Below, in pieces: positions 1 through 5,000 of a stretch of 7,161 nucleotides of DNA. The notes below the pieces were generated by a model. That model did not search any database, was not told where the DNA came from, and worked only from the letters and a program-made list of their open reading frames with translations. A program made the position numbers and the translations under genes. Within the stretch, counting starts at the first letter, position 1; each line of letters begins with the position of its first letter. The DNA is from a virus. Lineage: Duplodnaviria > Heunggongvirae > Uroviricota > Caudoviricetes. The stretch is from the IMG/VR virus record IMGVR_UViG_2534681979_000007; one strand, written 5' to 3'.

Positions 1-174
1 AAAAAAAAGGGATCTAGCTATCTCTATCCCTGTGTGCTTGCAGTCTCAGTTTGAACATAATAAAACGTTGATCAGCGGAACTTTGATTACAGAGCCAAAG
101 TTGACGACCGTAATTATGCACTGAAGGAAAGGGAGTTTAACGCTAACCAGAATTACCGGAATGCGTCACTGGGT

Positions 175-1167
175 ATGGAGCAGCAGCGACTCCAGTTGCA
201 GAAATACAACCAGCGACGGCTTGAGTATAACGATATGATTGCCCATAGCCAGCCACTAATGGAAGCGCTTGGAAAAGCAATTGAGGCTGGCGATCAGGAG
301 GCTGCAACGCGTCTGTTCGGGCAGCTGCCAAAGGGACATCCATTAATTCTTATGTCAAACGAAGGCTATGCAGCGAAAGCGGGTCAGGCCGTGATCAACC
401 TGCAAAAAATCTTTGGTGATAAGCCGGACATGGCGATCGATTCGCTGAATACCCCGGAAAATCTCGATGTGCTTTCCGGCGTGTTTGCCCCGGAACTACA
501 ACAGCGTATTGGCATGCCTGATTCAACCGGGGAAAAAACGATAAAAGAGGCCAGGATTGGCAGTATCGTACCAGCGCAGCAGGAAGGGTACGTACTTATT
601 GGCCTTGATCTCACATACAGCGATGGCTCCACCGCGCATAAACCTGTAACAGAATACGGCAGTGCGCACCCTGATGATCAAACCGTGCTGGCGATACCCG
701 TTGATAAGGCTATCGCTCAGGTCAGGGATCGCAGCAAATTTGCAGAGATATCGAAAAATTATGGTTATTTTATGCCGAAGCAGCAGGGACTTTCTCTGAA
801 AGAGCTTCAGAAGGGGGCCAGCAACGTAGCGGCGGACGCGATCAAGAATGGCGGTAATGCTCAGGCTGCGGTGGATGAATATTATGCTGCGACTGGTTCA
901 CAACCGCATCAACAGAAAATTCAGCAACAAAAACTTCAGCAACAGGTTATCAACTGGGCGGGAGATGATCCTGATAAGCTGTCATTTGCCAGAAATGTAG
1001 CGGCCCGTCAGCCTGAAATGCTGGAACCTCAGAATCAGAAATTGCTGGAGAACGGGTATGCGAATTTTCTCCGTATTCAAAAGGCCAGGGGGGAACAGGC
1101 CAGAGATGAAAGTGCTTCATCTGCATCTCAGTTTATCCGTGGACTGAAACAGAATTACGCCCAGTAA
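175..1167 (+). CDS. Hypothetical protein, 330 aa, hydrophilic with a Gln-rich segment; first gene of a three-gene co-directional cluster
   Basis: Complete ORF in frame 1 from the six-frame track. Frame 1 has tandem stops at 58..63 and no ATG/GTG/TTG between 64 and 174, so ATG 175 is the first available start. The Shine-Dalgarno upstream of 175 is weak (ctgggt). The ORF ends at TAA 1165..1167 and is followed 34 nt later by a hairpin plus T-tract. No recognisable catalytic motif seen by eye. Confidence 0.7.
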   Translation: MEQQRLQLQKYNQRRLEYNDMIAHSQPLMEALGKAIEAGDQEAATRLFGQLPKGHPLILMSNEGYAAKAGQAVINLQKIFGDKPDMAIDSLNTPENLDVLSGVFAPELQQRIGMPDSTGEKTIKEARIGSIVPAQQEGYVLIGLDLTYSDGSTAHKPVTEYGSAHPDDQTVLAIPVDKAIAQVRDRSKFAEISKNYGYFMPKQQGLSLKELQKGASNVAADAIKNGGNAQAAVDEYYAATGSQPHQQKIQQQKLQQQVINWAGDDPDKLSFARNVAARQPEMLEPQNQKLLENGYANFLRIQKARGEQARDESASSASQFIRGLKQNYAQ

Positions 1168-1200
1168 TTCACGATATTCCATTAATACCATTTCCTGATG

Positions 1201-1225
1201 CCCGGCCATTGTGCCGGGTTTTTTT
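1201..1225 (+). terminator. Rho-independent terminator-like hairpin: 6-bp all-GC stem (CCCGGC / GCCGGG), 6-nt loop (CATTGT), followed by T7
   Basis: Read directly: 1201..1206 cccggc pairs with 1213..1218 gccggg, loop 1207..1212, then ttttttt at 1219..1225. It lies in the gap between the stop of gene 1 (1167) and the probable start of gene 2 (1237). Confidence 0.5.
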
Positions 1226-1236
1226 ATGGAGTCTGT

Positions 1237-1998
1237 ATGGCCTATTCAGAGGAACAGCGTCCTGAGGCGCAACTCGGTAACCAGAATCGTAACAGCCTGA
1301 ACATTCAGCAACCCGGCGAAACTGACAGCTATGAAGCATTTTTCTCTGATCCGAATCGCTGGAAGGATAACAGTACGTCGTTCAGCCTGGGCGATGTATT
1401 GCCAACAATGGGTAAAGGTTTCGCCCAGTCCGTCCGGGGAACAGGGGAAATGGCCCGTGGACTCGGTGATGCGATGATTCAGAGCCCGGTAAAAACAGGG
1501 GCGCGTATTTTAAATGAGTTTAGCCGTATGGGGCTGCCGGGTGTCGCAACTGTGCAGGATATTTTTGCCGGTGGCAGCAGGGGGGCTGATGAGGTCATCG
1601 ATACCCTGCCTGATGGCAAAAACGCGGTTACTGATACTGTCGGTAAAGGTCTGAAGGCAACCGGTAAGGCTGTCAGTGATGGTGCCAAAGCCACTGATGA
1701 ATGGCTGACCGGTAAGATGTCGCCGGGTGCAGTTCGTGCGCTGAATACGCCGATGACCGAAGGCTATAATGATTCTGCGGTCTGGGTGGCGAAGGGTGTA
1801 AACCTGATTGGTGCGCTTGTACCTGATATGGTTGCTGGCGGTGTGGCTAGAAAGGTGGGTGATGTCACACTGCGAAAAATGCTGACCGCCGGGCTGGAGA
1901 AAAAATACATCGCGGCAGGGATGCAGCCGGAAAGAGCCACGGCACTGGCAGCAGAAGCTGTCGATAAAAAATGCCGGATTTATTCCAGGCGGGCCTGA
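1237..1998 (+). CDS. Hypothetical Gly/Ala-rich protein, about 253 aa, with a hydrophobic segment near the C-terminal third (VWVAKGVNLIGALVPDMVAGGVA)
   Basis: Frame 1 ORF listed in the track as 1198..1998. The ATG at 1198 lies immediately before the terminator hairpin so that the hairpin and T-tract would be coding. The in-frame ATG at 1237 is preceded by GGAG (1228..1231) with a 5-nt spacer, so 1237 is the preferred start. Stop is TGA 1996..1998. Confidence 0.7.
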   Translation: MAYSEEQRPEAQLGNQNRNSLNIQQPGETDSYEAFFSDPNRWKDNSTSFSLGDVLPTMGKGFAQSVRGTGEMARGLGDAMIQSPVKTGARILNEFSRMGLPGVATVQDIFAGGSRGADEVIDTLPDGKNAVTDTVGKGLKATGKAVSDGAKATDEWLTGKMSPGAVRALNTPMTEGYNDSAVWVAKGVNLIGALVPDMVAGGVARKVGDVTLRKMLTAGLEKKYIAAGMQPERATALAAEAVDKKCRIYSRRA

Positions 1999-2036
1999 TC
2001 ACCCATTCCACTGTAAGTGCACAGGGGCAGAGTGCA

Positions 2037-5000
2037 ATGGCGGCAGCAGATGCTGTTCTTAATGCTGATTACTCTGAGCTGGCGCAGTCACCGAAATTTC
2101 AGCAGACGTTTTTGTCCATTGACGCCGACCCGCAGCACGCACAGCTTACTGATCGCCAGAAAATGGATCTGGCAAAAGAGCGTGTTGCCGATGAGGTGCG
2201 CGCGCAGCTGGCAACCGATCCTGAATTGCTGGCTGTGAATGCCATGGCGGCAAAACTGGGTGACGCACAACTGTTTAATCTGGTGACACGAGGCACAGCG
2301 AAGACCGTTAAAAGCGGCATTGTCAGAAATGCCACTGCACAGGGGGCGATTAATGCGGCGCAGGGCGGCTATTCACGCTATCAGGAAAACACGGCATTGC
2401 GTGAGACCGCCGGAATGGATGTATCGCCATGGGAGGGCGTGGCTGACGCAACGATCGAAGGTGCTGCCCTTGGTGCTGCGATGGGGGCTCCATTCGGTGC
2501 GGTTGCCGGATATCGTGGCAGACGTCAGGCCGCAGAAGAAACCGCCATGCGTGATGCTGAAACCGTGCAGCAGGACGACGCAGCCCCGCAACCAGAATCT
2601 GTTGATCCGGTGGCGCAGCAGCGTGAATCCATGCAGGGCATGAATCGCGAGCAGCTTCTGGAGCAGTATGCTGATGCGGATATGGCAACAGAGGGTGACG
2701 CATCCGCAGCTCATCGCCGGGAAGCTGCCAGCCAGTTGTTGAATGAACTGGACGAACAGACGAAGCGACAGGCTGTGATGAATGAGCTGAAGGCGAAGCC
2801 GCGTTCTGAACTGCTTGAGGAATACCGCAGACTCAGCCAGAAAGAGGGGCGCACCGAGACTGAAGAACAACAGTTTCAGGCAATACGAGAAGTCATTCGC
2901 CCACAACAGGAAGTGACGCCGGAAGCACAGTCACAGCCTGAAAATGCGGAGGATGGTAACGGGAGCATTTACCCGACGGTGCGGTTCCGGGACCCGAATG
3001 AAGTCCGCATTGAAATTAACGGGAATGGTGCGTCCAGACCAGCGGAACGCATTGAGAAGGTGCGCCCGGACAACCGTTATTTCACGGATGAGAAAAGCGC
3101 CATGGGGAGTGATGTTTTCCGTAATGCCGCCGCCACCGGCCTGAAACCGTCCGTAGTGAAGAAAGGCGAGAATCAGTATGCCGTTGAAATGGATAATCCT
3201 GCGTTCTCTGAAGATGTGGCAACGGAGACCATTAACACTCTGGCTGACGGAGAGCGTATTACTGATGCTGATCCGATGGAACAGCCCGCGTTCATGCGTG
3301 ACCCGCGATTCCGTGGTTTTACGGGGGATGATACAGAAGTGCAGGCCCGTCTTGCCCGTGGCAACGCGCCGACGGCGGAAGAACTGGTGCGTTCCCAGAT
3401 GGCTGAAGGTGATGCCGGTCCGACAGCACAGGAGTTAACTGAGCGTCCACGCCTTCCCGCTCCCGGCGATATTCATCCCGGACAGGGATATCCGTTACCA
3501 GGAGAAGTGGCGCGTACGCCGGATGAAAATCAGGCCGGACGTGGTGGTCGTTTTACCACAACCGGTGAGGTGAAGGGCCAGAGTTTCCAGAAAGGACGTG
3601 AGCAGGCACCGGAAAATGCCGCTGGTCGCCAGGGGGAAATACTGGAGGGCGAAACAGTTCGTCGTGGTCTGCCGTCACCGGATGAGCAGAACGCCACAGC
3701 ACCAGTGCGTGAAGGACTTCCTGCACCTGAAAGTCAGCGTGGGGTTGATATGCCACAGCCTGAATCACTCCCTCGTATGGTTCGTGACTCCCTTCCGGAA
3801 CTGGCACAGCAGGCAGAAGCACGCAGACAGACCGGGGATAATCGCCAGACCATAACCGATGTTCCGGATACTGAGGTGCCGGTGCCGGTAGATAAACCGA
3901 GCACTCACCAGCAGGTGCGTGGTGCGAAAATTGAAGACTTTGGCGAGGAGATTAAGGGCGCGGCAAAACACCGTTATGCGCAGCTTGCTGAAGCTATGGG
4001 TAAAACGCTGGAGGATGGGGAGTACGCGACACAACCACTGAGCAAACTGTTTCCAAAGCCGGATTATGCCCGTCTGGAAAAAGAAGGTGTGGATAGTGAC
4101 ACGCTGGCAATGATGGCGTTGTATCGCAGTGAAATTCCCACCAGAACAAGCCGTAACATGCAGAAATGGATCAGCATTGTTAAAAGCGGTCGCGAAGCTA
4201 CTGCCGGTATGCTGGAGGGGAAAATTCCGGCAGCGAAACTGGCTGATATGATGGACAGTAAGCCGGGGTTACGGAGCATGTCGGATACCTGGAAACTGCT
4301 CCGTACGCTTTCTGCATTGCAGATTGATAAAGCATCCGGCTATCGTGTCAGGTCCGGTGTTTATTCGTTTGTCGGGGGAAAACGTTACGATCCGCCGCAA
4401 ATGATGTATTCGCTTCGTGATAGCAAGGGGCGCGACCTCTTTTTCTCGGAAAGCCGGGATGAGTTACTGAAAAAGGCGAAAGCATATTTCGATGAACAAG
4501 GCTCCAGAGAAAGGGAAACGCCAGCAACCTCTGCTGATGACAGAATAACCTTTGACGTGTACCGGCATAAGGCCAGTGGCGACATTTTTATCGGTTATGG
4601 CAAAAACAGGCAGAAACTGAAGGGCGGTTTTGAGTCTGCCCGTGATGCACATGATTATGTGCGCACACATCGTGATGAGCTGGTTAATCAGGTGAAGGCG
4701 CTGCGTGAAGTCTCGCGTGAGGAGCAGCGTAACGCCACCAACCGCGATCGTACCGGACCAGAACGCCGCAAGGGGGATGTTTCGCCGGAGCAGTTCAGTG
4801 ATGCGTTTGGTTTTCGTGGTGTGCAGTTTGGTAATTATGTGGAAAGTCCGCGTCGTCAGGCTGATTTGAACCGGGCTTATGACTCGCTGCATGACCTGGC
4901 TGACGTGCTGAACGTGCCGACAAAAGCGCTTTCTCTGAACGGTCGTCTTGGGCTTGCTTTTGGTGCCCGTGGTAAGGGTAAGGCGGCGGCACACTATGAG

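Follow-up and report, generated by a model that had tools for sequence, protein, structure and literature searches.

RNA polymerase modified by a Q protein, such as that of lambda or of phage 82, is highly resistant to terminators over more than 20 kb. In phage T7, the terminator T-phi, which acts on T7 RNA polymerase and whose partial efficiency has been measured, lies co-directionally inside a late structural cluster, and the essential genes beyond it are expressed via read-through. Intrinsic terminators also occur inside the late operons of lambdoid phages (P22-like and lambda-like): as described for Salmonella phage L, they are co-directional, lie between essential virion genes in an operon transcribed from a single promoter and antiterminated by Q/gp23, and are followed by no promoter, their role having only been guessed at (PMC8022706). 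According to these guesses, they would either terminate partially and lower the amount of distal mRNA, or stop spurious transcription by polymerase that is not antiterminated (PMC8022706). Terminators made of a strong hairpin and a T-run have also been described in late operons downstream of the morons lom and bor (Juhala et al. 2000, cited in PMC4104026), morons having their own promoter and a non-essential cargo. In Stx phages, pR′ is the promoter of the late genes, and their expression requires antitermination by Q at tR′; this intrinsic terminator belongs to the same operon, gives rise to StxS and is overridden by Q on induction (PMC7547250).

By its matches, the DNA analysed here (the window, i.e. 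the whole stretch of 7,161 nt) belongs to a short-tailed lambdoid phage of the Stx-converting kind, of which it covers the distal part of the late region. Positions 40–7161 are matched in 186 phage records at 80–97% identity (megablast), all of them from Stx-converting or related short-tailed lambdoid phages (Sepvirinae, Traversvirus), as well as in 425 of 5,426 complete E. coli genomes, and the first 2.1 kb share 99.9% identity with the Stx2a prophage of O104:H4 outbreak strains. The layout is constant among annotated relatives: a 1,266-nt gene is followed by a 69-nt gap and by a gene of 8.35–8.38 kb, annotated as 'LPD5/LPD38 domain-containing protein', which is the final gene of the late region. 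In prophage Sp5 of E. coli O157:H7 Sakai, the counterparts are ECs_1241 (for gene 1 of the window) and ECs_1242 (for the giant gene), and 82 nt across the gap between them are identical to the window, whose positions 1219–1226 correspond to about 1,296,005-1,296,012 of NC_002695.2. Further upstream, on the same strand, Sp5 carries Q, tRNA genes, stx2AB, lysis genes, terminase, portal, capsid and tail genes; since the Q gene, pR′ and tR′ are located outside the window, the operon context is drawn from these near-identical relatives. Both ORF79 (ECs1241) and ORF80 (ECs1242) are essential for the production of infectious Sp5 particles, as in-frame deletions yield particles in which DNA is packaged but tails are absent, a defect that can be complemented (PMC5155283).

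The features on which the following paragraphs rely are listed in order along the window.

40..1167, + strand: gene 1, a homologue of Sp5 ECs_1241/ORF79 (421 aa) represented by its 3′ 1.1 kb, delimited by comparison with relatives
1165-1167, + strand: stop codon TAA of gene 1, read from the sequence
1168..1236, + strand: non-coding spacer of 69 nt between gene 1 and the giant gene, identical in Sakai Sp5
1198..1200, + strand: spurious ATG (the start in the gene track), at the foot of the hairpin, without a Shine-Dalgarno sequence and reading ATA in hairpin type B
1201..1218, + strand: terminator hairpin, from pattern scan and folding, paired in all distinct variants
1201-1206 and 1213-1218, + strand: stem arms CCCGGC and GCCGGG, forming six G-C/C-G pairs
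1207-1212, + strand: loop CATTGT, 6 nt
1200 and 1219, + strand: optional seventh pair, G.U, at the foot of the stem
1219..1225, + strand: T7 tract (U-tract of the terminator), with transcript 3′ ends predicted at about 1222-1226
1228..1231, + strand: Shine-Dalgarno GGAG, 5 nt before ATG 1237 and invariant in 76 of 76 loci
1237..7161, + strand: giant gene, running off the window, homologue of Sp5 ECs_1242/ORF80, 933W L0134 and Phi24B CM7

By every sequence-level criterion applied, positions 1201–1225 are a genuine Rho-independent terminator, and termination in vivo would be expected within 1222–1226. A consensus scan recovers the hairpin at 1200–1219 (7 pairs, of which 6 are GC, and a loop of 6), with a folding energy of −11.1 kcal/mol for the 6-bp stem and of −13.1 when the closing G.U pair is included (7 bp), and a d'Aubenton-Carafa-type score of +33. 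A strict pattern, defined as a perfect 6-bp G/C-only stem, a loop of 3–8 nt and at least six T in the next eight positions, is found once in the window versus 0.0045 times per dinucleotide-preserving shuffle (both strands, 2000 shuffles), and this single site coincides with the one intergenic gap of the window; loose terminator patterns show no excess over chance (3 in the window vs 7.2 in shuffles). The hairpin begins 33 nt past the TAA of gene 1, in non-coding DNA and co-directional with the genes. On the − strand it is followed by CATCAGG without a T-run, so that the predicted terminator is unidirectional. The sequence bears out what the initial annotation had described in this gap, namely a strong intrinsic terminator with a GC-only 6-bp stem, a 6-nt loop and a T7 tract (1201..1225), and GGAG and ATG 1237 placed straight after the T-tract. 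It had also claimed that no convincing sigma70 promoter can be placed between the terminator and the downstream gene, and a strict consensus scan, which weak promoters could escape, finds no promoter-like site on the + strand anywhere in the window; on reading the T-run/ATGGAG region, a poor −10 is seen with no −35. As no promoter was found between the terminator and the start of the giant gene, expression of the latter needs read-through. An Rfam scan of both strands of the whole window (E up to 1) gave no match.

The hairpin is preserved among relatives, and its covariation strengthens the case for a terminator. In total, 76 related loci were compared (47 from IMG/VR and 26 from metagenomes, plus annotated records), all matching the query protein from residue 1, and over the 100 nt around the start they present 11 distinct sequences, with three types of hairpin: type A, which is that of the window and of Sp5; type B, carrying CCTGATACCCGGT, in which the ATG at 1198 reads ATA; and type C, devoid of the upstream ATG and with a T-run of 7, 8 or 9. 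The hairpin is paired in all 76 loci, with 7–9 T following it across relatives, and the folding energies of its three versions are −11 to −13 kcal/mol. In an alignment of 10 variants, the 7-pair helix is 100% paired (70/70 cells) and two pairs are changed on both sides: at alignment pair 40/49, the G-C of types A and B is replaced by A-U in type C, a compensatory, two-sided change, and the basal pair is G.U, A-U or G-C depending on the variant, while pair 41/48 is C-G or U.G. When the 3′ arm was slid by 1–3 columns as a control, only 29–43% of cells paired, with no two-sided changes. From the stop codon to the hairpin, by contrast, lineages differ freely over 33 nt, indels included. The support for selection maintaining the hairpin is real, although the covariation comes from three lineages and so from few independent events.

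The wider search covered IMG/VR (47 loci), metagenomes (26), contigs from a one-genome-per-species collection (1 truncated locus) and, by tblastn, 50,697 phage genomes. No more distant relatives were found in these collections, which hold only the three hairpin versions, and within them the N-terminal domain of the giant protein is limited to Stx-type phages, with at least 68% identity. The truncated locus, the single match among one-genome-per-species contigs, comes from Xanthomonas pisi DSM 18956 (a contig of 801 nt) and shares 96% identity with the E. coli phage protein, probably a contamination of that assembly.

An outer helix that would mask the Shine-Dalgarno sequence and the AUG of the giant gene was suggested both by RNAalifold and by single-sequence folding. 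All of its 9 pairs are kept in all variants, but without two-sided changes and in a structure derived from the same alignment, and it was rejected as a specific feature, shuffles of the upstream segment occluding the Shine-Dalgarno sequence equally (25–56% do as well).

Taken with its setting, the terminator is a further well-supported case, at sequence level, of a known class, that of intrinsic terminators inside Q-antiterminated late operons. It differs from those of phage L by its lineage (Sepvirinae/Traversvirus), by belonging to a much denser set of about 12 in 38 kb, and by its place in front of an 8.4-kb polyvalent-protein gene, which it guards at the extreme end of the operon. A terminator of the moron kind lies nearby, directly after lom in the same phage. 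The site itself is not of that kind, since it has no detected promoter and follows an essential gene, ORF79 (PMC5155283). In sampled relatives whose sequence reads that far, a gene, compared by position, ends directly upstream of the hairpin at the same place, and the C-terminal sequence of this upstream gene differs in type C. The resemblance to T-phi is superficial, and the polymerase would here be that of the host, with or without Q. Finally, tR′ directly follows pR′ and works as a regulatory switch, whereas the present site lies 30 kb further along the operon and is not known as the source of an sRNA.

Comparison with relatives also settles where the giant gene begins, which is at 1237 and not at 1198. 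The ATG at 1198 is in frame with that at 1237, 13 codons upstream of it, but has no purine-rich Shine-Dalgarno sequence. The motif GGAG-N5-ATG (GGAGTCTGTATGGC) is invariant among the 76 loci, and past ATG 1237 changes are mostly synonymous and at third positions (GCC/GCT, TCA/TCC, GAA/GAG, CGT/CGC). Since the length of the T-run varies between 7, 8 and 9 in type C, which would break the frame, the region 1198–1236 cannot be coding; this variation, together with the ATA of type B, argues against 1198 as a start. Coordinates mapped from relatives place the start of the giant gene at window position 1237 and the stop of gene 1 at 1165–1167, and a protein starting with MAYSEEQ is found in independent annotations (933W L0134, Stx2-86 gp35, VT2phi_272, and RefSeq records of O104:H4 and Sakai). 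The suspicion, expressed in the initial annotation, that the gene-track start at 1198 is wrong was well placed, and the correction is a gain for annotation, the giant gene of a medically important phage group beginning at MAYSEEQ (window 1237).

The same annotation had treated a 'gene 2' (1198–1998) and a 'giant gene' as separate units, a division that does not hold: by comparison with relatives, they are one gene, split by the loss of 1 nt in a homopolymer (A6 instead of A7) that is unique to the window, 'gene 2' amounting to no more than the first 243 codons of the giant gene. As a consequence of this deletion, the frame opened at 1237 ends at a stop at 1996–1998, and the rest is open without a stop over 1968–7121. 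Homologues of the giant gene (~8.4 kb) encode proteins of 2,783–2,793 aa. Four domains of ECs_1242 score above Pfam cut-offs (LPD5, LPD1, MuF_C and LPD38); window positions 1968–7121 encode the first three, LPD38 lying beyond the window, and by these domains the product is a polyvalent protein of the Iyer/Aravind LPD class. No Pfam family was found for gene 1, whose frame is itself broken by a 1-nt loss at 61/62, leaving 175–1167 as the longest called ORF.

Up to about position 3200, the alignment to the O104:H4 prophage shows only two differences, both of them single-base homopolymer deletions. Relative to that prophage, the losses are A4 for A5 (58–61), A6 for A7 (1960–1965) and C2 for C3 (~7122). 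Among the loci fetched, these contractions are unique to the window, A7 being found in 67 others, A5 in 28 and C3 in 6, and a reading frame is broken by each of them. Three homopolymer contractions without nearby substitutions look like sequencing errors. If they were genuine instead, which is less likely, the window would come from a decaying prophage with both of its essential tail genes inactivated.

Two other peculiarities of the window concern its composition. Stx-phage homology begins abruptly at base 40, within gene 1, and positions 1–39 (AAAAAAAAGGGATCTAGCTATCTCTATCCCTGTGTGCTT) have no match in the 5,426 E. coli genomes and phage matches at chance level only. An artefact (a contig end or a chimera) may account for this, or else a junction absent from the sampled genomes. 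Within the giant gene, about 3200–4620 is mosaic, being strongly divergent from the O104:H4 prophage with many indels before the two become similar again, a pattern that indicates recombination inside the polyvalent-protein gene.

In Sp5, the 38-kb late unit that starts at pR′ and closes with ECs_1242 (NC_002695.2 1,266,203-1,304,404) was scanned for hairpins followed by a T-run, with a score above 10 and a dG of −8 or lower. This returned 12 co-directional terminator-like sites versus 4 antisense ones, and versus about 0.15 per shuffle (4 hits in 26 shuffles). The scan is validated by its antisense set, which includes the published terminator of AsxR (PMC4104026). Eight co-directional sites are located in or after the morphogenesis block and four upstream of it.

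Morphogenesis-block sites: after portal, after the major capsid gene, after ECs_1224, after ECs_1229, after lom, after ECs_1237 and after ECs_1241, with one more in the gap between lom and ECs_1237
Upstream sites: two near tR′, one after the tRNA genes and one after stx2B

Several of these terminators directly abut the next Shine-Dalgarno sequence; the site of the major capsid gene, for example, is followed at once by CAGGAG. The site after ECs_1241 is the last of the series, and none follows the giant gene. Stx phages thus carry unusually many intrinsic terminators in a Q-antiterminated late operon, and since ORF79 and ORF80 are both essential, polymerase must pass all of them. Given about 12 co-directional terminators in an operon that is antiterminated by Q, read-through is most likely achieved by processive antitermination and not by leakiness. 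The initial annotation was right that 'gene 2' and the giant gene need read-through, no promoter being found to serve them, but the mechanism is most likely antitermination by Q, and the two form a single gene.

On balance, it is probable that the terminator stops non-antiterminated transcription in lysogens and is overridden by Q-modified polymerase, and we infer that insulation is the role for which it has been selected. Polymerase unmodified by Q would halt at the hairpin and its T7 tract, whether it came from the constitutive promoter of lom, located a few kb upstream, or from spurious promoters of the prophage, and the 8.4-kb giant gene would thereby be kept silent in lysogens. On induction, Q-modified polymerase coming from pR′ would pass this terminator and the approximately 11 other co-directional ones, and express the giant gene. 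The main argument comes from Phi24B, in which expression of lom (CM18) is equal in lysogens and after induction, whereas that of the giant gene (CM7, 49148-57571), located downstream of lom on the same strand, rises only on induction (PMC3342100). The CM7 protein shares 91–99% identity with the Stx2-86 and Sakai proteins. As CM18 is constitutive and CM7 induction-only, something must insulate the giant gene from lom transcription, and the three terminators between lom and the giant gene are the obvious candidates. This contrast in expression is the reason why insulation is preferred over attenuation. Against such a role for the present site in particular, the terminators after lom and ECs_1237 already separate the lom promoter from gene 1, and a consensus scan of the related prophage locus L003 found no promoter-like site between the terminator of ECs_1237 and this one. 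A literature search on the transcription of ECs1241/ECs1242 found nothing further.

Attenuation, by which Q-modified polymerase would override the terminator only in part, is possible although not what we expect; each terminator of the late operon would then remove a fraction of the transcripts, leaving the least mRNA for the last gene, whose giant product would be needed in few copies per virion. The position of the site suits this role, since a strong terminator directly precedes the largest late gene, which is also the final one, and is followed by no promoter, and the terminators after portal, capsid and tail-associated genes could likewise grade output. T-phi of T7 (genes 10/11) is a precedent for an internal terminator that attenuates. 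However, the distal essential genes would be shut off by a series of twelve terminators if termination at each of them were not very slight under Q, and the resistance conferred by lambda or phage 82 Q over more than 20 kb speaks against partial override. The low stoichiometry that the initial annotation proposed for downstream genes is one of the two roles guessed at for P22-like late-operon terminators (PMC8022706), and nothing in the present analysis shows it. Attenuation and insulation are not mutually exclusive. Both could be combined in a two-state device formed by the dozen terminators: in lysogens, the prophage would be compartmentalised, so that constitutive accessory promoters such as that of lom do not leak into a costly or toxic giant gene, while on induction a graded ladder of attenuation, acting on Q-modified polymerase, would set virion stoichiometry. 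We regard this as unlikely, but if true, the final terminator would adjust how many copies of the giant protein are made.

A post-transcriptional role, the hairpin acting as a 3′ stabiliser that shields the ECs_1238–1241 segment of a processed late transcript against 3′ exonucleases, or as the 3′ end of an Hfq-binding 3′UTR sRNA, is more doubtful still. The usual module for 3′ protection and Hfq binding consists of a G+C-rich hairpin followed by a U-tail, a description that the site fits. Terminator-bearing sRNAs are moreover plentiful in Stx prophages, for example StxS, AsxR and EcOnc27 (PMC7547250, PMC4104026), but ECs1241 and the coordinate prefixes 12959/12960 are absent from two Sakai Hfq-CRAC supplementary files (including the EcOnc table), Rfam gave no match, and the 33 nt before the hairpin are free to vary and to gain or lose bases. 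A 3′UTR-derived or orphan Hfq sRNA ending at this site was likewise discarded as a candidate, having no entry in the Hfq-CRAC supplementary files, and HnrS being encoded in other prophages.

It is very improbable that the site is a chance palindrome, the leftover of a recombination junction, or coding sequence read from 1198, since, although loose patterns are common by chance and ATG 1198 is in frame with 1237, the strict pattern is hardly expected once in a window and its stem is kept by compensatory change, and the ATA of type B, the T-run variation of type C and the lack of a Shine-Dalgarno sequence before 1198 all argue against coding.

Several observations were made on RNAs and genes in the vicinity. 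In published Sakai Hfq-CRAC data, ECs1242 is ranked 17th among all CDS, with antisense reads in vast excess over sense ones (for example, 26,613 versus 1,456), so an abundant Hfq-bound antisense RNA would be encoded somewhere within the giant gene. Weak terminator-like sites are present on the − strand of the giant gene at window positions 1988-1974 and 4537-4521. The published 20-nt RNA 24B_1 of Phi24B, from the lom-vb_24B_43 region, maps downstream of lom, about 3.5 kb upstream of the terminator, and does not overlap it. Hok/Gef toxin genes are found on either side of the region, an intact one after lom and a remnant after the giant gene (6795-6935 and 18670-18743 of locus L003), neither of them overlapping the terminator. 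In E. coli O111:H8 strain 8B (4140-5455 of its locus), an IS1203/IS629 element is inserted in antisense orientation with a 3-bp ATT duplication, at a site corresponding to window positions ~1177–1179, between the stop of gene 1 and the hairpin, so that the giant gene is cut off from the late operon while the hairpin and the Shine-Dalgarno sequence are left intact.
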